64,000 nt of DNA from Actinomycetes bacterium (GCA_021798985.1 JAJZBI010000020.1:4785-68784), one strand, 5' to 3'. Shown: positions 23,374 to 34,337, numbered from the stretch's first letter. Made by a program: numbers and translations. The notes: a model not told the origin generated them from the sequence alone.

Positions 23374-24678
23374 GTGTTCGACGTCTTGGACTGGCGCGAG
23401 CTGCTGGTCGCCGAGGCGCGCCAGCTGCAAGAGAGTGGCTACGAGCCGGCGCTCGGCGCGGACGAGCTCGACCGGCTGGTGGGCGGCGCGCTGCCCGAGT
23501 CCCCCGAGCTCGGGGCCGCGTACGCGCGCCTTGCCACGAGCCGTCGCCGCGCCGGCACGACGGAGGTCGCGCCCGAGTCGCTCGAGGACATCACGGCGCT
23601 GTCGTCGCCGCCCCCGGCAGAGCCCGTGCCGGCCGGGCGAGCCGAGGACGGGGTGCTCGCCGCCTGGCTCGGGCGGTGCGTGGGCTGCAACCTCGGCAAG
23701 CCCGTCGAGGGCTTCGGCTGGAGCCGGCAAAAGCTCCGGCGCTACCTCGAGGCGGCCGGTGCCTACCCGATCACGGACTACCTGCCCGTGCTCGATCCGA
23801 TGCCGGACGGCCTCGTCTTCAACCCCGCCTGGCGGGAGACGACGCGCGGGCACGTGCGGGCGATGGCCCGCGACGACGACCTCGACTACACCGTGATCGG
23901 CCTCGAGCTCCTCGAGCGGTACGGGCCGGGTTTTCGCACCGCGGACGTCGGCGAGCTGTGGCTGGAGCTGCTGCCGTTCTCCAAGACCTACACGGCCGAG
24001 CGCGCGGCCTACCGCAACCTCGTGCGCGGCCTCGTGCCACCGCAGACCGCCACCTTTGCCAATCCCTATCGGGAGTGGATCGGGGCGATGATCCGCGCCG
24101 ACATCTTCGGCTACGTCTGTCCCGGCGACCCGGCCGCGGCGGCCCGCCTTGCCTACCGCGACGCCACGCTGTCGCACACCGCCAACGGCGTGTACGCCGC
24201 GATGTGGGCGGCCGCCCTCGTCGCCACGGCGTTCTCTGCCACCTCGCCGCGCCAGGCGATCGAGCGGTCGCTGTCGGTGGTCCCGCCCGGCTCTCGCCTC
24301 GCCCGGGCGGTGCGCGACCAGCTCGACGCGCACGCCGAGGGGGTCGGCTTCGACGAGGCGATGGCCCGGGCCGACCAGCGCCTCGGCCACTACCACTGGA
24401 TCCACGCCATCAACAACGCCGCAGTGGTCGCCGCCGCGCTGCTGTGGGGCGAGGGCGACTTCACGCGTACCGTCGGCTATGCCGTCGAGGGCGGCCTCGA
24501 CACCGACTGCACCGGGGCGACGGCCGGCTCGGTGTGCGGCGTGCTGGTCGGCACCGCCGGGCTGCCCGCGCACCTCGTCGACCCACTCGAGGACACGCTG
24601 CACAGCGCCGTCTTTGGCTACGAACCCTCGCGCATCTCCGAGCTGGCGAGGCGCACCGTGGCGCTGCGGGCGGGCTGA
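23374..24678 (+). CDS. ADP-ribosylglycohydrolase family protein
   Basis: ARDDDLDYTVIGLELLE and VEGGLDTDCTGATAGSVCGVLVG are the two Asp-rich metal-binding blocks of the family. Confidence 0.82.
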   Translation: MFDVLDWRELLVAEARQLQESGYEPALGADELDRLVGGALPESPELGAAYARLATSRRRAGTTEVAPESLEDITALSSPPPAEPVPAGRAEDGVLAAWLGRCVGCNLGKPVEGFGWSRQKLRRYLEAAGAYPITDYLPVLDPMPDGLVFNPAWRETTRGHVRAMARDDDLDYTVIGLELLERYGPGFRTADVGELWLELLPFSKTYTAERAAYRNLVRGLVPPQTATFANPYREWIGAMIRADIFGYVCPGDPAAAARLAYRDATLSHTANGVYAAMWAAALVATAFSATSPRQAIERSLSVVPPGSRLARAVRDQLDAHAEGVGFDEAMARADQRLGHYHWIHAINNAAVVAAALLWGEGDFTRTVGYAVEGGLDTDCTGATAGSVCGVLVGTAGLPAHLVDPLEDTLHSAVFGYEPSRISELARRTVALRAG

Positions 24679-25658
24679 GGGGGGCGCTCGGGCGAAGCGT
24701 CTGGTTGCGCGGCGCCGATCAGGTACTCGGAGATGTCCCGCACGCTCAGCGTGTCCCCGGCTGCCTTGCGGAGGTTGATGAGGCACAGCGGGCACATCGT
24801 CACGCACGCCGTGCCCACTTCGCGCAGCTGGGCGACCCGCGCCGCGGCGACCTGTGCCGCCTTGTCGGCGTCGAGCGACTCGACCGGCCCGCCGCAGCAC
24901 CAGGTCCGGGCGCGGGAATGCACCGGCTCGAGGACGCGCAGCCCGGCGGCGGCCAGCAGCTCCCGGGGCGCTTCGAGCACGCCCTCGGCACGGGCAAAAA
25001 CGCACGAGTCGTGGATCACGACCTCGTTCTCGACGGCTCGAGGCGACCCGGTGGCCGCCGCGGCGAGCACCTCGAGGTACGTGCGAACCGACACGTCGTA
25101 GCCCGGCACGAGGCGGGGGTAGATGCTGCGCAGCATCGTCGTCGTGTGGGGGTCGATCGTGATGACCTCGCGCACGCCGTAGCGCTCGAAGATGCGAGCG
25201 ACGCGGCGGGCGTGGGCCGCCACGACCTCGTCAGCGCCGAGGTCGTAGGCGAGCGCCCCGGCGTACAGGTCGTCCTCGTACAGCGAGCCGAACTCGACGC
25301 CGGCGCGCTGGAGCAGCCGGGCGACGTTGGCCGGCACGGCGTCGTAGTCGCGGCGCTCCGCCGCGCTCGGCCGCGCCACGAGGCCGATCGCGTTGACAAC
25401 GCGGTTGACGCGTCGCGCCAGGCCACTCAGGCGGGCAAGCGGCGTGTCGGCGATCCTCTGTTCGAGGCGCACCACCCGTTCGATGTAGGGGATCAGCTGG
25501 TACATCGCCCCCGTGTAGAGGACGCGCGGGCCGCCGCGGGGCAGCGCGAGACCGCGCGCCCAGCCGGTGGCGGCGCGCGCCGGGATCGGCAGCACCGATC
25601 CGCGCCGCTCGAGGTTGTCCGCGAGGATGCCGACGACGTCGACGGTGGAAAGCCTCAT
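24618..25658 (-). CDS. HdrB-like CCG-domain (Fe-S) protein with a single Cys-complete CCG motif
   Basis: C-terminal half carries HDSC...TWCCGGP...TMCPLC (CCG pattern). The first ~200 aa contain no cysteine. ATGA overlap with the hdrC-like gene. Confidence 0.8.
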   Translation of the reverse strand: MRLSTVDVVGILADNLERRGSVLPIPARAATGWARGLALPRGGPRVLYTGAMYQLIPYIERVVRLEQRIADTPLARLSGLARRVNRVVNAIGLVARPSAAERRDYDAVPANVARLLQRAGVEFGSLYEDDLYAGALAYDLGADEVVAAHARRVARIFERYGVREVITIDPHTTTMLRSIYPRLVPGYDVSVRTYLEVLAAAATGSPRAVENEVVIHDSCVFARAEGVLEAPRELLAAAGLRVLEPVHSRARTWCCGGPVESLDADKAAQVAAARVAQLREVGTACVTMCPLCLINLRKAAGDTLSVRDISEYLIGAAQPDASPERPPQPARSATVRLASSEMREGS

Positions 25659-25957
25659 CGCGCCTCTTTCCTGAGCAGGTAGCGCCGCAGGAGCCGGATG
25701 TCCTCGCTGATGTGCACTCCGGCGGGACAGGCGCTCTCGCACGCCCGGCACAACAGGCACGAGAAGATCGCCTCCGCCTCCGCGAGGAGGTGGTCCTCGA
25801 GGCCGAGCGCGGCGTCCCGCAGCACGCGCCGCGGCAGGACGTCGATGCCGAGCGGGCAGGTTGCCGTGCAGGTGCCACAGCTCATGCAGACCTCGGGATC
25901 AAAGGGCCCGAGGGTGCGCAGCGCGTCGGCGACCTGTGGCGACACGGTGGCCGTCAT
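25655..25957 (-). CDS. HdrC-like 2x[4Fe-4S] ferredoxin-type subunit
   Basis: CMSCGTCTATCP and CLLCRACESACP (two CxxCxxCxxxCP motifs) in 100 aa. ATGA overlaps on both sides. Confidence 0.82.
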   Translation of the reverse strand: MTATVSPQVADALRTLGPFDPEVCMSCGTCTATCPLGIDVLPRRVLRDAALGLEDHLLAEAEAIFSCLLCRACESACPAGVHISEDIRLLRRYLLRKEAR

Positions 25958-26181
25958 CGCTTTGCCACCGCGTAGGAGAAGTAGCCCTCTGGGGTTGGCT
26001 CGCCGACCGTCACGTCGCCGTACTTGCGCATGCCCATCACCCAGATCACGACCTCGTCGGCCGGGTGCCCCGAGGCCGCAGCGAGCTCAGGCACGGTGAG
26101 CGGTCCCGCCTCGAGGAGCTGGAGCAGCCGGCGACGAACCAGCGGCTCGTCGCGCACGACCTCGCGTACCTCCCGGGTCAT
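25954..26181 (-). CDS. small (75 aa) winged-helix-like protein embedded in the hdr-like operon
   Basis: RRRLLQLLEAGPLTVPELAAASGHPADEVVIWVMGMRKYG looks like an ArsR/MarR-style wHTH. ATGA overlaps at 26181/26178 and 25957/25954. Confidence 0.6.
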   Translation of the reverse strand: MTREVREVVRDEPLVRRRLLQLLEAGPLTVPELAAASGHPADEVVIWVMGMRKYGDVTVGEPTPEGYFSYAVAKR

Positions 26182-27899
26182 GGCGCCACCTCCCCGGCCA
26201 TCGCCGTGATCATCGCCCGCAGCTGAACGTCCCGGTATCCCTGGAGATCGATCGCGTCTTCCGGGCAGACCGGCACGCAGGCGCCGCATCCCTTGCACGC
26301 CGAGGCGTCTACCCGGGCGCGCGGCGACGCGCCATCGAGAAGCGCGATCGCTGCAAAGGGGCAGGCGGAGACGCACTCCCCACAGCCGCTGCACGCCTCG
26401 GCGCGCACGATTGCGACCTCCGGGTCGAGCTCGGCGACGCCGCGTTTCAGCACGGCGGCGGCATGCGCCGCGGCCGCGAGCCCCGAGGTGACCGCCTCGG
26501 CGGCGGTCTTTGGTCCCTGGCACGCGCCGCAGATGCTCACGCCGTCGACGATCGTCTCGACGGGCCGGAGCTTGGGGTGGATCTCGTTGAAGAAGCCGTC
26601 CCGGCCGACCGGCAGCTTCAGGGTGTTCACGAGCTCATCGTTCGACCGCGGGCGCATGCCCGTCACGAGCACGAGCAGGTCCACCGAAAGGGCGAGCTCC
26701 TCGCCGGCCGCCAACTGGTCGCGCACGATGACGCGCACCTGTTCGCCCTCGGCGCTGATCCGGGGCGCGTCGTCGTCGCCAAAGCGCAGGTAGAGCGAGC
26801 CGAGACGCCGAGACTCGCGAAAGGCGAGCTCGTTGCGCCCATAGGTGCGGAGGTCGCGATGCAGGTGGAACTGGCGCAGCGACGGCTGGCGCCGCGCCGC
26901 GAGGATCGAGGCGTGCACCGCCGCGCTGCAGCAATAGCGAGAGCACGCCGGATTCTCCTCGTTGCGGCTGCCGACGCAGTACAGGTAGGCGACCGAGGAG
27001 ACCTCGCGCCCGCCGGCGCGCAGCGGGCCGCTGCTCTTGGCGAGAAGGCGGTCGAACTCCTCGAGGGTCACGACCCCGGGCATCCCGTAGCCGTACTCGC
27101 CGAGCTCGGGGGTATAGCTCACAAAGCCCGTGGCGACGATGATCTGGCCGACGGCGACGCGAGACACCTTGCCAGCTGTCTCGACCGCGACCTCGTAGTT
27201 GCCGTAGGTGCCCCGCTTTTCGCGCAGGACCGAGCGCGTGCGCACCGTGATGGCCTCGCGCTGTTCGATCTCGGCGATGAGGCGAGCGGCGAGTTCGTCG
27301 CCGCGCACCTGGTTCGGGAACATCTCCCCGAGGCCCGCCACGGCGCCGCCGAGGTGATCCTCCCGCTCGACCAGGACGACCTCGATGCCCACGTCGGCCA
27401 GCGCGACGGCGCTGCGCATGCCGGCGACGCCGCCGCCCACCACGAGGGCGCGACGCGTCGTCGTCACGTTGAGCGGCTCGAGCGGCGCCGAGAGGCGGGT
27501 CTTCGCGATGCCGGCCCGGACGAGGCGGATCGCCTTCTCCGTTGCCCCCGCGCGGTCGTCGGTGTGAGTCCACGAGCACTGCTCGCGGATGTTCACCTGG
27601 CTGTAGAGGTACGGGTTCAGTCCGCCGCGGCGAGCGACCTCCCGGAAGGTCGTCTGGTGCAGCTTGGGCGAGCAAGAGGCGACGACGAGGCCATCGAGCT
27701 CTTCGGCGGCGATGTCCTCGACGATTTCGCGCTGGGTGGCTTCCGAGCACGTGAACATCGCCTCGCGGGCAACGACCACGTCGTCCTCTTCTCGCACCGC
27801 CTCGACGACGCGGCCGACATCGACGTAGTCAGAGATGTTCCCGCCGCAGTGGCAGACGTAGACGCCGATGCGGCGCCGGCGGGGCTGAGGGGCGGTCAT
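26178..27899 (-). CDS. HdrA-like FAD/Fe-S flavoprotein (HdrA/QmoB type) with C-terminal 2x[4Fe-4S] domain
   Basis: IGVYVCHCGGNISDYVDV, dinucleotide fold VVGGGVAGMRSAVALAD, YLYCVGSRNEENPACSRYCCSAA, C-terminal CSGCGECVSACP and CKGCGACVPVCP. ATGA overlap with the upstream gene. Confidence 0.85.
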   Translation of the reverse strand: MTAPQPRRRRIGVYVCHCGGNISDYVDVGRVVEAVREEDDVVVAREAMFTCSEATQREIVEDIAAEELDGLVVASCSPKLHQTTFREVARRGGLNPYLYSQVNIREQCSWTHTDDRAGATEKAIRLVRAGIAKTRLSAPLEPLNVTTTRRALVVGGGVAGMRSAVALADVGIEVVLVEREDHLGGAVAGLGEMFPNQVRGDELAARLIAEIEQREAITVRTRSVLREKRGTYGNYEVAVETAGKVSRVAVGQIIVATGFVSYTPELGEYGYGMPGVVTLEEFDRLLAKSSGPLRAGGREVSSVAYLYCVGSRNEENPACSRYCCSAAVHASILAARRQPSLRQFHLHRDLRTYGRNELAFRESRRLGSLYLRFGDDDAPRISAEGEQVRVIVRDQLAAGEELALSVDLLVLVTGMRPRSNDELVNTLKLPVGRDGFFNEIHPKLRPVETIVDGVSICGACQGPKTAAEAVTSGLAAAAHAAAVLKRGVAELDPEVAIVRAEACSGCGECVSACPFAAIALLDGASPRARVDASACKGCGACVPVCPEDAIDLQGYRDVQLRAMITAMAGEVAP

Positions 27900-30586
27900 G
27901 CCGGCACCCTCGTGGACTGAAGGTAGGCCGCCGCCTGCACGGCGGCCGCCCCGGCATGCAGGATCGACTCGGGGATGTCGCGCGGGCCGGTGACCGCTCC
28001 GGCGGCAAAGACGCCGGGAATGCTCGTCGCCGCGGGGTGATCGTCCTCGCTGACCTCGAGCACGAAGCCCTGTGGGTCGAGCTCGAGGCCGTCCTCGAAG
28101 AGCCGGGCGATGCCGGGGCTCGGCTGCACGCCGACCGCCAGCACCACGAGGTCGTACTCGGCCACTCGCACGCCGCCGTGCGCGATGTCCTCGTAGGAGA
28201 GCATGAGGTCGCCGTTCTCGAGCTCGTTGATCTCGGCGACGCGCCCTTTGATGAAGGTCGTCCCCATCGCCTTGGCCTGCTCGAAGAACTCGTCGTAGCC
28301 CTTTCCTGCCGCCCGGATGTCGATGTAGTGGACGGTGACATCGGCGAGGGGGAGCGCGCCGAGGATCAGCTGGTTCTGCTTGAGCGAGTACATACAGCAG
28401 AACTTCGAGCACATCGGGTTGTTGACCGTCTCGTCTCGAGAGCCCGTGCACATGACGTAGGCGATCTTCTCGGGGACCTTGCCGTCGCCTGGGCGCAGGA
28501 CCCCGTGATAGGGGCGTGTTGGTGCCAGCAAGCGCTCCATCTGGGTCCCGGTGACGACGTTCTTGAATCGCCCGTAGCCGTACTGCGGCTTGAGGTCCGC
28601 GTCGAAGAGGCGGTAGCCGGTGGACACGATCACGGCCCCGGCGCGCACCGTGTGGTCCTCGGGGCGCATCTCGAGATGGATGGCGTCCGCCGGGCAGGCG
28701 GCGACGCACTCGTGGCACTCCGAGCAGACCCCGCAGTCCAAACAGCGTCCGGCCGCAGCGAGCGCCTCGTCCTCGCTGAGCGGTCCCTCGAGCTCCGCGA
28801 ATCCCCGAGGTGCGGGCGAGAGTACCGGCCGGTGGACGAACGCCTCGCGGCGCGTATAGGCGCGCTGGCGGGCGAGCACCGCGTCGTGGGAGACGACCGG
28901 TAGCGGCACCTCGAGGCCGGCGAGATCCTTTCCCGAGAGGTAGCGGTCGATCATGTGGGCGGCGTCGCGTCCGGCGCCGACCGCCTGGGCGATCGTGGAG
29001 GGCCCGCTGACCGCATCGCCGGCGGCGAAGACTCCCTCCTCGGCGGTGCGAAACGTCGCCGGGTCGGCCCGAAGGCGCCGAGACCCCGCCGGGGCGAGGG
29101 AGGGGAAGGCCGCGGTGTCGACCTCCATGCCGATCGCGACGAGCACGACGTCGGCGCCGAGCTCGGCGCGCCGGCGATCGTCGTAGGTGGGAGCGAAGCG
29201 GCCGTCGGCGTCGAAGACGGCCGTGCAGGCCTTCAGCCCGACGGACGCCACGGCGTCGCTCCCGGACAGGTCGGCGATGCCCCAGCCGTCATGGAGCTCG
29301 ATCCCTTCGGCGAGCGCCTCTTCGACCTCGAAGGCGTGCGCCGGCATGTGCTCGCGCTGCTCGAGGCAGACGAGGTGCACCGAGCGGGCGCCGAGGCGTG
29401 CGGCGCTGCGCGCCGCGTCGATCGCCACGTTGCCGCCGCCGATCACGGCGACGGTGCGATCGGTGAGGTCCACTGGCGCACCGAGCTTGAGGTCACGCAG
29501 CAGCCCGAGGGCGCTGCGCACCCCGTCGAGGTCCTCTCCCGCCACGCCGAGCCGTGCGGCAAGGGGCGTGCCGGTCGCCACGAGCACGGCGTCGAAGCCG
29601 CCCGCCCGCAGCTCGGCGAGGTCGCGCACCAAATGCCCGGTCTCGATCTCGACGCCGAGCTCGGCGAGGTTGGCGAGGTCGCGCTCGACCGTCGCCACCG
29701 GCAGGCGGTAGGAGGGGATCGAGAGGCGCATGGCGCCGCCGGCGACGGGCGCGGCCTCGAAGATGCGGACCGCGTGCCCGGCGCGCGCGAGCTGCCAGGC
29801 GGCGGTCACCCCCGCCGGCCCCGATCCCACGATCGCCACCCGCTTGCCGCTCGGTTCGGGACGGGCGGGCGCTTCGTGGTTACCGTCGGACCCATAGTGC
29901 ACATCGGCGACGAACCGCTTGAGGCGCCGAATGGCGAGCGGGCCCTCGAGCGCTCCTCGGGTGCAGGCCGCCTCGCAGGGCGCGTAGCAGGCCCGCCCGA
30001 GGCTCCCGACGAGCGGCGTCGTCTCCGAGACGAGCGCGAACGCCTTGTCGTACTCGCCGCTACGCACGAGCGACACGTAGCCGTGCGCTTTGATCCCCGC
30101 AGGGCACGCAAAGGTGCACGGGGAGGTGCCGGCCCGCTCGATGAGCGCCTTTTGCGGCAGCGCCTGGGGGAAGGGCAGGTAGGCGGCGCGGCGCGACACC
30201 AGCTCGCCGTTGTACTGGTCCGGCACCGCCACGGTGCAGGCGAGCTCGCACTGGCGGCACGCCGTGCACGCCGCCACGTCGACATAGCGCGGCGTCTGGT
30301 GGATCGTGGCGCTGAAGCCGCCGTCGGTCATACGCACGACCCGCTCGAGACGGGCGTCGGTCAGCACGCTCACGTTGGGATGGTGGGCGGTGGCCGCCAT
30401 CTTGGGCGTCGAGATGCAGCTCGCGCAGTCAAGGGTGGGGAAGACCTTGCTCAACAGGATCATCTTCCCGCCGATGCTCGGCTCGGACTCGACGACGAGG
30501 ACCCGGTAGCCCATGTCGCCGAGCTTGAGCGCGGACTCCATGCCGCCGATGCCGCTGCCGAGGACGAGGACGTCGTAGTCCGTCAC
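27896..30586 (-). CDS. HdrA-like flavoprotein with an inserted GltD/NfnB-type NAD(P)H oxidoreductase module
   Basis: N-terminus DYDVLVLGSGIGGMESAL..VFPTLDCASCI (HdrA). Then PCTFACPAGIKAHGYVSL..KRVAIVGSGPAGVTAAWQLARAG..VAVIGGGNVAIDAARSA..VFAAGDAVSG (GltD/NfnB-like). Then CLDCGVCSECHECVAACP and YVMCTGSRDETVNNPMCSKFCCMYS (HdrA C-terminal part). GTG 30586 follows GAGGAG. Confidence 0.85.
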   Translation of the reverse strand: MTDYDVLVLGSGIGGMESALKLGDMGYRVLVVESEPSIGGKMILLSKVFPTLDCASCISTPKMAATAHHPNVSVLTDARLERVVRMTDGGFSATIHQTPRYVDVAACTACRQCELACTVAVPDQYNGELVSRRAAYLPFPQALPQKALIERAGTSPCTFACPAGIKAHGYVSLVRSGEYDKAFALVSETTPLVGSLGRACYAPCEAACTRGALEGPLAIRRLKRFVADVHYGSDGNHEAPARPEPSGKRVAIVGSGPAGVTAAWQLARAGHAVRIFEAAPVAGGAMRLSIPSYRLPVATVERDLANLAELGVEIETGHLVRDLAELRAGGFDAVLVATGTPLAARLGVAGEDLDGVRSALGLLRDLKLGAPVDLTDRTVAVIGGGNVAIDAARSAARLGARSVHLVCLEQREHMPAHAFEVEEALAEGIELHDGWGIADLSGSDAVASVGLKACTAVFDADGRFAPTYDDRRRAELGADVVLVAIGMEVDTAAFPSLAPAGSRRLRADPATFRTAEEGVFAAGDAVSGPSTIAQAVGAGRDAAHMIDRYLSGKDLAGLEVPLPVVSHDAVLARQRAYTRREAFVHRPVLSPAPRGFAELEGPLSEDEALAAAGRCLDCGVCSECHECVAACPADAIHLEMRPEDHTVRAGAVIVSTGYRLFDADLKPQYGYGRFKNVVTGTQMERLLAPTRPYHGVLRPGDGKVPEKIAYVMCTGSRDETVNNPMCSKFCCMYSLKQNQLILGALPLADVTVHYIDIRAAGKGYDEFFEQAKAMGTTFIKGRVAEINELENGDLMLSYEDIAHGGVRVAEYDLVVLAVGVQPSPGIARLFEDGLELDPQGFVLEVSEDDHPAATSIPGVFAAGAVTGPRDIPESILHAGAAAVQAAAYLQSTRVPA

Positions 30587-31023
30587 GATCCGAGCTCCTC
30601 GAGCGAGTCGCAAAAGGCGCGCACCTGGCGCGCAAAGGGCTCGGCGCACACCGAGCAGATCGCCGTCATCTTGAGGCGTCTCCCGTCGATCCCCTCGGTT
30701 GCGAGCAGCTCCTGCGCCGTTGCGACCAGGCGCGCCGAGCGCGCCGAGCAGTCGGCGAGGTAGCCGCACTCGTCGCCGTCGGCGGCGATGAAGACCCCGT
30801 CGAAGCCTTCGCGCAGCGCGTGCAGGATCCAGGCCGGCTTGATGCCGCTCGTGCAGGGAACGCTCAGCACCACGACGCCCGGGTCGTAGTGCAAATGCGA
30901 GCTCCCGGCGAGGTCGATCCCGGGATCGGAGATGAGGTTCGTCGAGAACACCAGCACGCGCGGCGCGCCTGGGCGAGCGAGCAGTTGCGGGGCGCGCAGC
31001 GGCGTCGCGCTGGACGTGCTCAC
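30583..31023 (-). CDS. MvhD/FlpD-like (methyl-viologen-reducing hydrogenase delta subunit family) protein
   Basis: DLAGSSHLHYDPGVVVLSVPCTSGIKPAWILHALREGFDGVFIAADGDECGY..RRLKM follows the FlpD domain pattern. GTGA overlaps at both ends. Confidence 0.75.
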   Translation of the reverse strand: MSTSSATPLRAPQLLARPGAPRVLVFSTNLISDPGIDLAGSSHLHYDPGVVVLSVPCTSGIKPAWILHALREGFDGVFIAADGDECGYLADCSARSARLVATAQELLATEGIDGRRLKMTAICSVCAEPFARQVRAFCDSLEELGS

Positions 31024-31286
31024 TTGGCCCGGCGGATGAAGACGCGGTCGTAGCCCTGCGCCGCGACGACGCCGAGGAAGCCGTGCCCCACCTTGTTGGC
31101 CCACGCCGCGACGTCGGTCTTGGTCTGCGGGTCGCTCGACCACAGCTCGAGCACGGCGCCGATCTCGATGCCACCCATGGCCTTCTTCGCCTCGAGTAGC
31201 GGTCCCGGGCAGGCCGCGCCGCGGGCGTCGACGACCGTCGAGGCCTCGAAGGCCTCGGCATCGCTCTCGTTCAGCATGCTGGTCAT
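31020..31286 (-). CDS. TusA-family sulfur carrier protein
   Basis: VDARGAACPGPLLEAKKA (D-x-RG-x-x-CP-x-P motif), 88 aa. GAGAGGAG RBS before ATG 31286. Confidence 0.85.
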   Translation of the reverse strand: MTSMLNESDAEAFEASTVVDARGAACPGPLLEAKKAMGGIEIGAVLELWSSDPQTKTDVAAWANKVGHGFLGVVAAQGYDRVFIRRAK

Positions 31287-31310: not shown

Positions 31311-31679
31311 TCAGTACACGAGGCTGGCGGTGGCCGAGGTCACCTCGGCGACAAAGCGCGCCCCGGCGACGATCTCGGCGCCGTCGACGAGGTCCTCTTG
31401 GGTGAGGCCTCTGGACTTGAGGCACGGCGAGCAGACGAGCAGCTTGCCGCCGAGCTCCTGGACGGTCTTTAACAAGACATGCATGGGTGTGAACTCGGGA
31501 ACGGCGATCTGCTCGGCGACGCCCTTCTTCATGAGCTCACACCCCGCGGCTTGGAAGCCCATCACGACCTCGACGTCTGAGGCGACGGCGGCGCCGGCCA
31601 TCACGAAGGGAATCGTGGCGAGCTCAGGCTCCTCAGGGCCATGGGTCACCATGATCACGAGCTTCTCGGTCTCTGCCAT
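31311..31679 (-). CDS. DsrE/DsrF-family protein (DsrE3-like)
   Basis: KLVIMVTHGPEEPELATIPFVMAGAA ... LLVCSPCLKSRG, 122 aa, typical DsrE-fold length and Cys placement. Confidence 0.78.
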   Translation of the reverse strand: MAETEKLVIMVTHGPEEPELATIPFVMAGAAVASDVEVVMGFQAAGCELMKKGVAEQIAVPEFTPMHVLLKTVQELGGKLLVCSPCLKSRGLTQEDLVDGAEIVAGARFVAEVTSATASLVY

Positions 31680-31680
31680 C

Positions 31681-31932
31681 TCAGGCCTCCTTGCCTTTGC
31701 GGATCAAAAAGACGAAGGTCTCGCCCTCGCGGTGTTGCGCGACGAGCTCGTTGCCGGTCGTCTGTGTCCACGCCGGCACGTCGGCGAGCGAGCCGCGGTC
31801 GGTGGTGGTGAGCCTGAGGACCTGGCCCGGCGCGAGGCCGCGCACGGCGGCCGCGGTCTTGATGATCGGCATCGGGCACAGCAGCCCGCGCGCGTCGAGC
31901 TCCAGGTCTGCCTGCGGTGGCGCGTCAGTCAT
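31681..31932 (-). CDS. TusA-family sulfur carrier protein
   Basis: LDARGLLCPMPIIKTAAA motif, 83 aa. Its stop lies 1 nt from the dsrE3-like start. Confidence 0.85.
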   Translation of the reverse strand: MTDAPPQADLELDARGLLCPMPIIKTAAAVRGLAPGQVLRLTTTDRGSLADVPAWTQTTGNELVAQHREGETFVFLIRKGKEA

Positions 31933-32817: not shown

Positions 32818-33816
32818 CTACTTGATGGTGACGGTGCCCTTCATGTAGCCGCTCGCGTCCATCGGGCCGTGCTCGCTGTTCTTGCCCGTGCCGCAGGGGG
32901 CGTAGCACTGCCAGCTGTAGGTCCCGGCCTTGCCCGTGTGGATCGTCGCTTGCACCACGATGACCTTGCCGGTGGGGGCGGCGGGGATCGGCAGGTTGAT
33001 GCCGAGCTGGGGGATGGTGAAGGTGTGGGAGATCACCTTGTTGCTGACGTCGCTCAGCGTCTTGCCGCCGGCCTTCTCCTTGCCGCCGACGGTGCCCATG
33101 ACTTTGTCGTAGAAGATGACGTTCTTCGGCAGCGGGGCAGCGCCGTCGTCGTGGGAGTCGATCGTGAGGACCACGGTCGAGTTCTTCGGCAGCACGATGT
33201 CCTTGCTGTTGACGTACTCGGGCCAGCCCTTGCGTCCGCTCGACTGGATGACGAGCGTCTTGTGGACGACGGCGCTGGCGTGCTTTGCGGCCGGAACCCT
33301 GGCGGCACCGGCGGGAGCGGCGAGCGCCGCGGTGCCGCCGGCGACGGCGAGGGCGCCGGTCAGTCCGGTGGCGATCGTCTTGGCGGCGGTGCTCTTGGTC
33401 AACATGTTGGAGGATTCCTTTCTGGTGGTGGAGCTCTGGGCGTTGCGAGGAGCGTTGGCGCTCGAGGACAGCGCCGTGGTGGTCGCGGCGATCGGCACGG
33501 CGGCGGCGCTTGCCGCCCCCGCCGGCCCAGCGGTGAGCCAGGCGTTCTCGTCGGAGATGTTGCTGACGACCCCGACGCCGAGCACGGCGACGAGGCTGGT
33601 GACGCCGGCTGCGACGACCCAGGACGTCCAGGCAATCCGCTGCTTGTTCGCCGCAGCGATGCGGCGCTGCTCGCGCCAGGAGAGCACCCGGGCGCCGAGG
33701 TGGTCGAGCGCCATCAAGAACGAGTAGCCGGCGCCCGCGGCGACCTCGATCTGGCGAGTCGTGTCGAAGACGGCGCGCCCGCGGCCGGGGTGGCGCAAGG
33801 CAGGGAAGGTGCTCAT
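32818..33816 (-). CDS. membrane-anchored CuA-like cupredoxin domain protein (paralogue 2)
   Basis: C-terminal domain SHTFTIPQLGINLPIP ... WQCYAPCGTGKNSEHGPMDASGYMKG. TM segment TSWVVAAGVTSLVAVLGVGVV. ATG 33816 overlaps the upstream stop (ATGA). An in-frame internal ATG at 33405 (MLTKSTAAKTIATGLTGALAVAGG) after AAGGA could give a shorter signal-peptide form. Confidence 0.75.
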   Translation of the reverse strand: MSTFPALRHPGRGRAVFDTTRQIEVAAGAGYSFLMALDHLGARVLSWREQRRIAAANKQRIAWTSWVVAAGVTSLVAVLGVGVVSNISDENAWLTAGPAGAASAAAVPIAATTTALSSSANAPRNAQSSTTRKESSNMLTKSTAAKTIATGLTGALAVAGGTAALAAPAGAARVPAAKHASAVVHKTLVIQSSGRKGWPEYVNSKDIVLPKNSTVVLTIDSHDDGAAPLPKNVIFYDKVMGTVGGKEKAGGKTLSDVSNKVISHTFTIPQLGINLPIPAAPTGKVIVVQATIHTGKAGTYSWQCYAPCGTGKNSEHGPMDASGYMKGTVTIK

Positions 33817-34337
33817 GCCGTCACCTTGATCGAACCCATCATGTAGCCGGCGTGTGCCATGACCCAGCTGCCGCAGGGAACCTCGCACTGCCAGCTGGCG
33901 AGACCCGCCTGCTTCGGGTCGATCGTGAAGTGCACGGTCGCCGGGCCCGGCGGGACCGTCTCATTGACGCCGAGCGAGGGCACCGTGAAGGTGTGGGGCA
34001 TGGGCGTTTTGTTGACGATCGTGACCGTCGTCGGCGACCCGGCCGTCACGGTGCCGAGCACCGCCGCGCCGACGCCGTTGCTGCCGACGTAGGCGGGCTG
34101 CTGGCCCTCGGGGGTCTTGACGTTCTCGATGCTGACCGTGAGCGACGTGCCGCCCGCAGGCGAGGCGGCCGCAGGCGACGCGGCGGTCGTCGCGCTCGCC
34201 GGGTTCGTCGCGTGCCAGACGGCACCGACGCCCGCTGCCACACCGATCACCGCCGCTGCGCTGAGGGCGACCCCGCCAAGGAGGCTGCTCAGACCGATCA
34301 TGACTCGCCGTGGCGACGGTGCCTGGGTGGTGTCCAC
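33813..34337 (-). CDS. membrane-anchored CuA-like cupredoxin domain protein (paralogue 1)
   Basis: GTG 34337 lies 8 nt after AAGGAGG. N-terminal anchor VMIGLSSLLGGVALSAAAVIGVAAGV. PHTFTVPSLGVNETVP ... WQCEVPCGSWVMAHAGYMMG (H...C-x3-C-G...H...M pattern). Confidence 0.8.
   Translation of the reverse strand: MDTTQAPSPRRVMIGLSSLLGGVALSAAAVIGVAAGVGAVWHATNPASATTAASPAAASPAGGTSLTVSIENVKTPEGQQPAYVGSNGVGAAVLGTVTAGSPTTVTIVNKTPMPHTFTVPSLGVNETVPPGPATVHFTIDPKQAGLASWQCEVPCGSWVMAHAGYMMGSIKVTA

Follow-up and report, generated by a model that had tools for sequence, protein, structure and literature searches.

The stretch of DNA analysed here (64,000 nucleotides from an Actinomycetes bacterium, GCA_021798985.1 JAJZBI010000020.1:4785-68784; referred to below, at its full length, as the window) carries on its minus strand a gene of the hdrL type. 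Its product is an HdrA core binding flavin adenine dinucleotide (FAD), in which a complete module of the GltD/NfnB fold splits the inserted ferredoxin domain of HdrA into two halves. The gene, its three parts and two positions within the nested module are as follows.

27896..30586, minus strand: hdrL-type gene, 896 amino acids plus stop (translation; Pfam, NCBIfam and PDB matches; AlphaFold2 model and Foldseek)
30134..30586, minus strand: residues 1-151, first part of the HdrA thioredoxin reductase-like FAD domain, then first half of the inserted ferredoxin domain (aligns with residues 146-290 of HdrA in PDB entry 5ODC); motifs GSGIGG (10-15), DCASC (C54, C57) and C107-x2-C110-x2-C113-x3-C117, of which G10, G12, G15 and the numbered cysteines are invariant in 69 sequences
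28739..30133, minus strand: residues 152-616, nested GltD/NfnB-fold module (Fer4_20, Pyr_redox_2 and PDB matches; Foldseek); motifs C157, C161, C200, C204 and C208 (iron-sulfur, FeS), GSGPAG at 254-259 (FAD) and GGGNVA at 383-388 (the nicotinamide nucleotide NAD(P)H), ending in a permuted segment with R-C615-L-D
27899..28738, minus strand: residues 617-896, second half of the inserted ferredoxin domain, then the rest of the HdrA FAD domain (aligns with 5ODC HdrA 289-566; Foldseek match 8RWN_A); C618, which completes the permuted CxxC pair, C621-x2-C624-x2-C627-x3-C631-P, and a [4Fe-4S] site of C713, C726, C730 and C731
29918..29920, minus strand: K223, predicted fourth ligand of the FAD-proximal [4Fe-4S] cluster (alignment with K170 of StnC, 8OH5, and the equivalent lysines of 9BOV and 9N5U)
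29360..29368, minus strand: C407-L408-E409, at the position of the YRR motif for the NADPH 2'-phosphate in NfnB, StnC and NfnA (pairwise alignments)

The open reading frame (ORF; 27899..30586, minus strand) has 896 codons with no internal stop and is closed by the stop codon at 27896..27898. Its start codon, a GTG (30586..30584), shares the sequence GTGA with the stop of the mvhD-like gene upstream, and GAGGAG lies 8 nucleotides ahead of it; the same start point was found in homologues, giving the N-terminus MDYDVLVVGSG. The frame is uninterrupted, the phase of G+C at third codon positions (GC3) is uniform over both fusion junctions, and both junctions (30134 and 28739) fall within cluster-binding motifs that are invariant in 69 homologues. 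Two other readings were rejected. The plus-strand reading of 27896..30586 was noise with a stop, which placed the gene on the minus strand, a strand not given in the original prediction. A 1121-residue ORF started by ATG has 225 Arg/Pro-rich first residues that run out of frame over the mvhD and tusA genes; it is not the gene, because the GC3 signal upstream of 30586 shifts to the mvhD frame (at 30600-30900 the phase is that of this different frame).

Within the protein, Pfam recognised Fer4_20 at residues 154-230 and Pyr_redox_2 at residues 249-539. Among NCBIfam models, those for HdrA matched residues 1 to ~150 and 615-892 and the GltD/PRK12771 model residues 149-638, all matches being sub-cut-off (299-450 bits for the HdrA models against curated cut-offs of 1100-1400). 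In PDB sequences, residues 6-151 aligned with positions 146-290 of Methanothermococcus HdrA (5ODC) and residues 617-890 with positions 289-566. Because these flanks align with adjoining stretches, the 465-residue insertion lies at one point of HdrA, between 5ODC positions 290 and 289, a point with one CxxCxxCxxxC motif of the inserted ferredoxin domain on either side. Insert residues 154-627 aligned with residues 101-574 of Caldicellulosiruptor NfnA (9BOV). HdrL does not have the four-domain layout of HdrA (N-terminal FeS, thioredoxin reductase-like FAD, inserted ferredoxin and C-terminal ferredoxin domains): in the 5ODC alignment it is without the N-terminal FeS domain and also without the ferredoxin domain at the C-terminus. 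An AlphaFold2 model built from an alignment of 69 homologues had a mean predicted local distance difference test score (pLDDT) of 86.3 and a predicted template modelling score (pTM) of 0.81, with residues 150-560 mostly above 90. By Foldseek, the insert superposed on Thermotoga maritima NfnB (4YLF_B) with a target-normalised TM-score of 0.79 over 429 columns, and also on Pyrococcus furiosus NfnL and on GltD (0.75-0.79 for NfnB/NfnL on the same scale); the non-insert part superposed on HdrA 8RWN_A with a target-normalised TM-score of 0.86. Both folds, the HdrA core and the GltD/NfnB-fold insert, are complete in this model. The original prediction, made from the sequence alone, had described a single 896-residue polypeptide with an HdrA core and a GltD/NfnB-like unit, and this description agrees with the Pfam, NCBIfam, PDB, AlphaFold2 and Foldseek results. 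All ten peptide strings that it quoted are in the translation, the boundary mapping by hidden Markov models and structure prediction that it proposed places the insert at residues 152-616 between the HdrA halves, and its reservation that the insert might lack an NAD(P)H-binding fold is removed by the superposition on NfnB.

Conservation of the cofactor sites was assessed in 69 aligned homologues from more than 10 phyla, and invariant below refers to this set. Invariant positions included the FAD fingerprint of the HdrA part (G10, G12, G15 and E33), the DCxxC pair (C54 and C57), the cluster ligands of the ferredoxin domain (C107/110/113/117 and C621/624/627/631), the cysteines of the insert (C157/161/200/204/208 and C615/618), its FAD and NAD(P)H fingerprints (G254/256/259; G383-385 and N386) and the ligands of the [4Fe-4S] cluster in the HdrA FAD domain (C713/726/730/731). 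By analogy with DPD/NfnB numbering, the insert would hold a proximal cluster ligated by C161, C200, C204 and K223 and a distal cluster ligated by C157, C208, C615 and C618. The whole set of motifs is sufficient for two FAD and five predicted [4Fe-4S] clusters. Since C615 and C618 of the putative distal cluster abut C621, the first ligand of a ferredoxin-domain cluster, in the sequence, a continuous electron wire from the distal cluster of the insert to the ferredoxin-domain cluster is very likely.

The insert is closest in sequence to the GltD-like modules of StnC and of Bfu-type NfnA and is less like bifurcating NfnB. The best matches were NfnA of Caldicellulosiruptor NfnABC (9BOV, E 4e-89), NfnA of Thermococcus NfnABC (9N5U, E 9e-83) and StnC of Sporomusa (8OH5, E 1e-76), followed by classical NfnB (4YLF_B, E 6e-60) and NfnL (5JCA_L, E 2e-47). 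K223, in the segment RRLKRFVAD, was invariant, and T. maritima NfnB has Glu in this column (LERFVAD). In the StnC and NfnA structures the FAD-proximal cluster has Lys as its fourth ligand, whereas NfnL has Glu (PMC10482914, PMC12018979); in place of the three Cys and one Glu of NfnB/NfnL, the insert thus has K223 as the candidate fourth ligand. Also, the segment EALAAAGRCLDCG (residues 608-619), which holds the distal cluster's CxxC pair, follows the Rossmann domains just as it does in 9BOV and 8OH5, with RCLDCG (residues 614-619) aligned to RCLECG of both; the permuted segment (residues 593-633) is homologous to the N-terminal residues 20-58 of NfnL-type 5VJ7. The insert therefore has the two features of StnC and Bfu-NfnA, a predicted Lys-ligated proximal cluster and a CxxC pair after the Rossmann domains, and at the level of fold it has those of NfnB/NfnL, namely a GltD fold, Rossmann domains for FAD and NAD(P)H, and two predicted [4Fe-4S] clusters. 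The GltD-like FAD of StnC was shown to be non-bifurcating and to pass single electrons into a cluster chain (PMC10482914), and because it does not bifurcate, the insert may by analogy be a hydride entry or exit site and not a second bifurcation site. The premise of the original prediction, that NfnB carries the bifurcating flavin, cannot simply be transferred to an insert whose nearest relatives are StnC and Bfu-NfnA, which has K223, and whose counterpart FAD in StnC does not bifurcate.

A further difference concerns the nucleotide. YRR follows the second Rossmann strand in NfnB, StnC and both NfnA chains, and HdrL has CLE at residues 407-409. Among the 69 homologues, C/S-L-E was present in 33 of the 34 rows of an Actinomycetota/Dormibacterota clade, the window's row included (Shimodaira-Hasegawa-like approximate likelihood ratio test, SH-aLRT, 98). 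YRR was kept in the rows of Chloroflexota, Bacillota, Acidobacteriota, Gemmatimonadota and Deltaproteobacteria type and in the rest, with the sole exception of L079, a Clostridia metagenome-assembled genome (MAG) with CLE. When the end of this strand has lost the two arginines and acquired an acidic residue, this is classically a mark of preference for NADH over NADPH. Because YRR is replaced by CLE, and in a clade-specific manner, NADH would be the more likely nucleotide of CLE-type HdrL. Of the NAD(P)H site that had been predicted, the site itself is supported by the Rossmann motif and the fold, and its nucleotide is more likely NADH than NADPH.

The hdrL gene belongs to an operon with the minus-strand order dsrE2-like, tusA, dsrE, tusA, mvhD, hdrL, hdrA2, a winged-helix-like ORF, hdrC-like and hdrB-like, in which most start and stop codons overlap or nearly abut. 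The genes around hdrL are listed below.

31952..~32470, minus strand: dsrE2 (NCBIfam DsrE2, 4.9e-56; Pfam DrsE_2)
31681..31932, minus strand: tusA (Pfam TusA)
31311..31679, minus strand: dsrE (Pfam DsrE)
31020..31286, minus strand: tusA (Pfam TusA)
30583..31023, minus strand: mvhD-like, 146 amino acids (Pfam FlpD, 3.5e-27; NCBIfam VhuD and the C-terminal part of HdrA2)
26178..27902, minus strand: hdrA2, a second HdrA-like gene, 574 amino acids (Pfam, NCBIfam; aligns with 5ODC HdrA 4-234 and 318-650)
25954..26181, minus strand: winged-helix-like ORF, 75 amino acids (ATGA overlaps on both sides; weak DprA_WH match, 4.7e-4)
25655..25957, minus strand: hdrC-like, 2x[4Fe-4S] ferredoxin, 100 amino acids (Fer4_17, Fer4_8; TIGR03290 HdrC at 1.2e-14, below the curated cut-off)
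24618..25658, minus strand: hdrB-like, 346 amino acids, one detectable CCG domain at residues 213-297 (Pfam CCG, 1.7e-13; weak TfrB and DsrK matches)

The product of hdrA2, which overlaps hdrL by 7 nucleotides, has an N-terminal FeS domain, an FAD domain and a C-terminal 2x[4Fe-4S] ferredoxin domain, and is without the inserted ferredoxin domain. Where HdrA has FPTNDCSIC it has FPNQVRGDE, and is thus without the DCxxC (Cys197) motif. HdrL is its exact domain complement, with DCxxC and the inserted ferredoxin domain and without the N- and C-terminal domains. Tandem HdrA halves with such a complementary pattern have been explained as a heterodimer, in which Cys197 completes the cluster of the partner's N-terminal domain (PMC9012536). 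Because the domain contents are complementary, the sequences suggest that HdrL and HdrA2 may form an obligate heterodimer. In two related loci (L023:6998-11395 and L038:7001-11347) and in one genome belonging to the same family (G009:C209:1048-3726), hdrL and hdrA2 appeared as one ORF encoding 1448-1483 amino acids; these are either true fusions, which would support physical association, or long-read indel errors, a possibility for the two loci in particular.

The arrangement of the operon was examined by tblastn in related loci, and the counts given here refer to the 80 best loci from the 240 species genomes with a relative. The order tusA-mvhD-hdrL-hdrA2-winged-helix ORF-hdrC was kept as far as the contigs reach. 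Directly upstream of hdrL, mvhD with an adjoining tusA was found in 79 of the 80, the remaining one (L019) being a 3-kb contig with almost no upstream sequence. HdrA2 followed HdrL in every locus whose contig continues past hdrL, and the winged-helix ORF was at the same position in nearly all loci, across phyla. The last subunit was a single-CCG HdrB-like protein in Actinomycetota, Chloroflexota and Desulfofundulus; in a Deltaproteobacteria MAG (L078:11695-12828) there was no HdrB, and the last subunit was a protein of 377 amino acids that begins with an HdrC-like ferredoxin part and whose C-terminal part, possibly QmoC/HdrE-like, had no Pfam match. Recurrent genes in the flanks of the 80 loci were regulators only (ArsR-type, sigma-54-type and histidine kinases), with no recurrent hydrogenase, formate dehydrogenase or DsrAB. 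For example, an ArsR/SmtB-type gene was directly upstream of the operon in 32 of the 80 loci (such as L074:5849-6268 and L004:4274-4690), divergent in Actinomycetota and co-directional in loci of Acidobacteriota and Deltaproteobacteria type; none was found when such a gene was looked for beside the window's operon.

Partners known from related systems were also looked for at the operon. Neither the operon nor its flanks encode an NfnA/NfnS partner (FNR-like, [2Fe-2S]); the search did not extend to other parts of the genome. The operon contained no HydBC/NuoEF-like partners and no NuoG/Fdh-like host scaffold, the scaffold being HdrA, and it contained no lbpA, second hdrB/hdrC or shdrA-type genes. 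A whole-genome scan for CCG domains gave one CCG at the operon locus. As regards individual genes, the first ~200 residues of the HdrB-like protein are cysteine-free, an arrangement more like the single catalytic CCG site of DsrK than like HdrB; the 3' end of its gene overlaps a convergent ADP-ribosylglycohydrolase gene (23374..24678) by 61 nucleotides. Two tandem genes (32818-34337, minus strand) lie directly upstream of the sulfur-carrier genes, with a weak Cupredoxin_1 match (1.3e-5) and no Pfam match, respectively, and were not seen as conserved neighbours in related loci. The ORFs 26463..27920 (plus), 26635..27750 (minus) and 25954..26523 (minus) were considered as neighbours and rejected: they had no Pfam matches, and frame analysis gave hdrA2, the winged-helix ORF and hdrC.

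Homologues of HdrL are widespread. A search for the same insertion, which the original prediction had suggested, gave more than 120 clustered full-length homologues in a protein collection (870-945 amino acids, 64-73% identity), with Acidimicrobiales, Solirubrobacteraceae, Gaiellaceae and Bacillota as named sources. When one genome per species was scanned with six peptide patterns, relatives were detected in at least 240 species, which belong to more than 10 phyla. The 80 loci represented Actinomycetota, Dormibacterota, Chloroflexota, Bacillota, Acidobacteriota, Gemmatimonadota, Myxococcota and other former Deltaproteobacteria, NC10, Planctomycetota, Verrucomicrobiota and Aminicenantes; in 77 of them the ORF is continuous to a stop, with a length of 873-937 amino acids in all but four of these 77. 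A cultured isolate was among them, the sulfate reducer Desulfofundulus thermobenzoicus DSM 14055 (L055), which has the same operon. In the window's own lineage, hdrL is an accessory, patchily distributed trait, since it was present in 5 of 41 genomes and in neither of the two same-genus genomes. The closest homologue was ~72% identical, and the operon has probably been moved horizontally.

The host genome (3.76 Mb, 97% complete) encodes three haem-copper oxidase subunits I (COX1), and because of these genes the host, a high-GC soil-type bacterium, is regarded as an aerobe or facultative aerobe. No match to the DsrC/TusE family and none to YeeE/YedE sulfur import was found in this genome. Since DsrC is absent, it is not the substrate here, and since YeeE is absent too and the three oxidases are present, the substrate cannot be borrowed from sulfate reducers.

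In methanogen HdrA, one electron pair exits via the FeS cluster of the FAD domain to HdrBC and the other via the cluster of the N-terminal domain and the inserted ferredoxin domain to ferredoxin (PMC9012536). By topology, the NAD(H) module of HdrL lies in the ferredoxin-reducing arm, where it would replace ferredoxin or add a port, and not at the MvhD entry, which serves hydrogenase. It had been predicted that the module could replace hydrogenase, formate dehydrogenase or FlxABC; we do not favor this role because the module is nested in the ferredoxin arm and mvhD is still present upstream of hdrL. Taken together, HdrL probably forms one half of an asymmetric HdrL:HdrA2 flavoprotein core, namely the half linked to NAD(H). 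NADH would exchange hydride with the FAD of the insert, which would act as a two-electron/one-electron converter of the StnC/Bfu-NfnA kind. Single electrons would then pass via the K223-ligated proximal cluster and the distal cluster (C157, C208, C615 and C618), and on through the two ferredoxin-domain clusters (C107-C117 and C621-C631), into the flavin core of the heterodimer, where a Cys of the HdrL DCASC motif would complete the N-terminal-domain cluster of HdrA2. From the core, electrons would reach HdrC and the single noncubane-type site of the single-CCG HdrB-like subunit, a putative thiol/persulfide site, and the core would also be connected to MvhD as a third port. The gene context indicates that the thiol-side substrate is most probably sulfur carried on TusA/DsrE proteins. 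Concerning direction, we lean slightly toward a reversible reaction in which NADH reduces a protein persulfide or disulfide, whether or not a third partner takes part.

Several points weigh against this interpretation. All electron paths through HdrL are drawn by analogy with other proteins, and no biochemical characterisation or purification of any HdrL was found in the literature. In the host, DsrC and YeeE are missing and three haem-copper oxidase genes are present. Some phyla have another subunit in place of HdrB, so that thiol chemistry cannot be assumed throughout the family. With regard to the insert, the authors of the structures called the meaning of Lys versus Glu ligation unclear (PMC12018979). 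R294 corresponds to the Arg in contact with flavin N5 in NfnB, and this residue is kept in HdrL and StnC alike, so that sequence alone cannot decide against a bifurcating flavin in the insert. Finally, the step from CLE to NADH would follow a rule of thumb.

The same parts can be read in the oxidative direction. HdrL would then belong to a lipoate-independent analogue of sHdr, in which sulfane sulfur on TusA/DsrE is oxidised at HdrB and the insert delivers NADH to the aerobic respiratory chain. This reading is possible, if rather doubtful. The operon includes the sulfur-carrier genes tusA, dsrE, tusA and dsrE2, a feature also of sHdr loci (PMC11094781), the aerobic host has three COX1 genes and no DsrC, an ArsR-type gene adjoins the operon in the 32 related loci mentioned above, and sHdr-type clusters were strongly induced in an aerobic Chloroflexi strain (PMC6776052). 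However, the lbpA, second hdrB/hdrC and shdrA-type genes are lacking and the HdrB-like protein contains just a single CCG domain, a sulfate reducer, Desulfofundulus thermobenzoicus, carries the same operon, and the HdrABC/HdrL/MvhD cluster of Syntrophobacter fumaroxidans was detected only with sulfate available, under sulfate reduction (PMC5947623). A wider proposal is that HdrL, HdrA2, MvhD, HdrC, the single-CCG HdrB and TusA/DsrE form a three-port complex which couples protein-bound sulfane sulfur to NAD+/NADH in aerobic soil Actinomycetota, Dormibacterota and Chloroflexota, either as the lipoate-independent counterpart of sHdr or as a bifurcating NADH:persulfide/X oxidoreductase, with the change from YRR to CLE as a switch from NADPH to NADH; in this full form it is unlikely to be correct.

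Another alternative is double bifurcation, as suggested for HdrA-NfnB of ANME-1 archaea, in which the FAD of the insert is itself bifurcating and the protein has two such sites or a mainly NfnB-like one. The fold and FAD pocket of the insert are those of NfnB, R294 (the Arg of IPxYRLP) is invariant, and double bifurcation was raised for the archaeal fusions (PMC9012536). Yet the closest sequences to the insert are StnC and Bfu-type NfnA, and the StnC FAD is non-bifurcating by experiment (PMC10482914); the insert has Lys at its proximal cluster and not the Glu of NfnL/NfnB (PMC12018979), and the operon provides no NfnA-like partner of the FNR type with [2Fe-2S]. Moreover, the motifs point to a single cluster chain out of the insert FAD, and bifurcation requires two exits. 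We consider this alternative very unlikely. That the fusion is an assembly, binning or frameshift artefact joining two genes, a concern of the original prediction for which only the unusual length and mosaic look of the protein speak and no evidence was found, is hardly credible, as the uniform frame and GC3 phase at both junctions, the position of these junctions in invariant motifs, and the same architecture in more than 120 clustered proteins, 240 independently assembled species genomes, one of them from an isolate, all argue against it.

To the picture of these widespread HdrL-type proteins the window's copy adds a predicted Stn-like, lysine-ligated entry site, placement in the ferredoxin arm, and a clade-wide loss of the NADPH motif. 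Of these, the lysine site and the motif loss are less ordinary, as are an aerobic host without DsrC and the conserved sulfur-carrier operon. The presence of hdrL in an aerobe without DsrC argues against DsrC as the universal substrate of HdrL. The cultured carrier Desulfofundulus thermobenzoicus DSM 14055 offers a practical route to the biochemistry.

Comparison with known systems showed which parts of this arrangement have counterparts. Modules of the Hdr type lead to different partners, Flx to NADH, Qmo to the quinone pool and sHdr to TusA/DsrE carriers, and Flx-Hdr includes the MvhD-like FlxD. In FlxABCD-HdrABC, which like QmoABC is known from sulfate reducers, a subunit of its own carries the NADH site and feeds via FlxD; QmoABC is without an NAD(P)H module; in the sHdr system of sulfur oxidisers, with its two HdrB/HdrC pairs, the electrons go to lipoate-binding proteins; and none of the three has a nested insert. 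Canonical HdrA, from MvhADG-HdrABC (5ODC, 8RVU), resembles HdrL in its thioredoxin reductase-like FAD domain with [4Fe-4S], its DCxxC and its two inserted-ferredoxin motifs, but unlike HdrL it has the N-terminal FeS and C-terminal ferredoxin domains and its inserted ferredoxin domain is uninterrupted. With NfnB/NfnL (4YLF, and 5JCA of P. furiosus) the insert shares the GltD fold, the FAD and pyridine-nucleotide sites and two [4Fe-4S] clusters; these proteins differ in their Glu ligand, N-terminal CxxC pair, YRR motif, requirement for an NfnA partner and bifurcating flavin. StnC of Sporomusa ovata StnABC and Bfu-NfnA are like the insert in the Lys ligand and in the RCLxCG motif after the Rossmann domains, and their module is a plain NADPH entry site feeding a cluster chain. 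However, their modules sit within NuoG/Fdh-like subunits, have HydBC-like bifurcating partners and use YRR and NADPH, whereas the window's protein has an HdrA scaffold and CLE.

The closest counterparts in architecture are fusions that have been described before. In ANME-1 HdrA9-11, the inserted ferredoxin domain is split by an NfnB-like insertion of ~500 amino acids (Chadwick et al. 2022, PMC9012536), and the topology of insertion in HdrA9/10/11 is identical to that of the window's protein, in which the insert likewise lies between the two CxxCxxCxxxC motifs. For these proteins two bifurcation sites and NADPH as carrier were raised as possibilities (PMC9012536). The ANME-1 insert, which is archaeal, is reported to be 45% identical to T. 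maritima NfnB, compared with ~34% for the window's insert, and the tandem complementary HdrA halves of that study belong to other HdrA groups, HdrA5/6 and HdrA12/13, not to the proteins with the NfnB insert (PMC9012536). The ANME-1 fusions have been discussed in connection with NADPH and the thiols of coenzymes M and B (CoM/CoB), whereas the window's protein has a non-YRR motif and sulfur-carrier neighbours.

The name HdrL was given in 2009 to a "heterodisulfide reductase/glutamate synthase fusion" for which mvhD adjoins each hdrL and NADH was the proposed donor (PMC2702500). The named HdrL proteins include HdrL1-3 of D. autotrophicum and Sfum_0824. The window's protein belongs to HdrL by architecture and gene context as described there and for Syntrophobacter (PMC2702500, PMC5947623): it likewise combines an HdrA-like FAD domain and a GltD/NfnB-like domain in one polypeptide next to an mvhD-like gene, and like the S. 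fumaroxidans cluster its operon also contains hdrA, hdrB and hdrC. Both the architecture and the idea of feeding pyridine nucleotide into Hdr have thus been published; the wiring of an NAD(P)H site into an HdrA scaffold, as the original prediction had it, is reasonable and was proposed in 2009 (PMC2702500) and 2022 (PMC9012536), and the architecture is not new. No description of a tusA-mvhD-hdrL-hdrA-hdrC-hdrB operon was found in the literature. HdrL proteins in the literature are from strict anaerobes, some with selenocysteine or a second NADH domain, and lie beside dsrABC, fdh or FeS-protein genes, with DsrC as the proposed substrate; in contrast, the window's HdrL lies beside tusA and dsrE in an aerobic host without DsrC.

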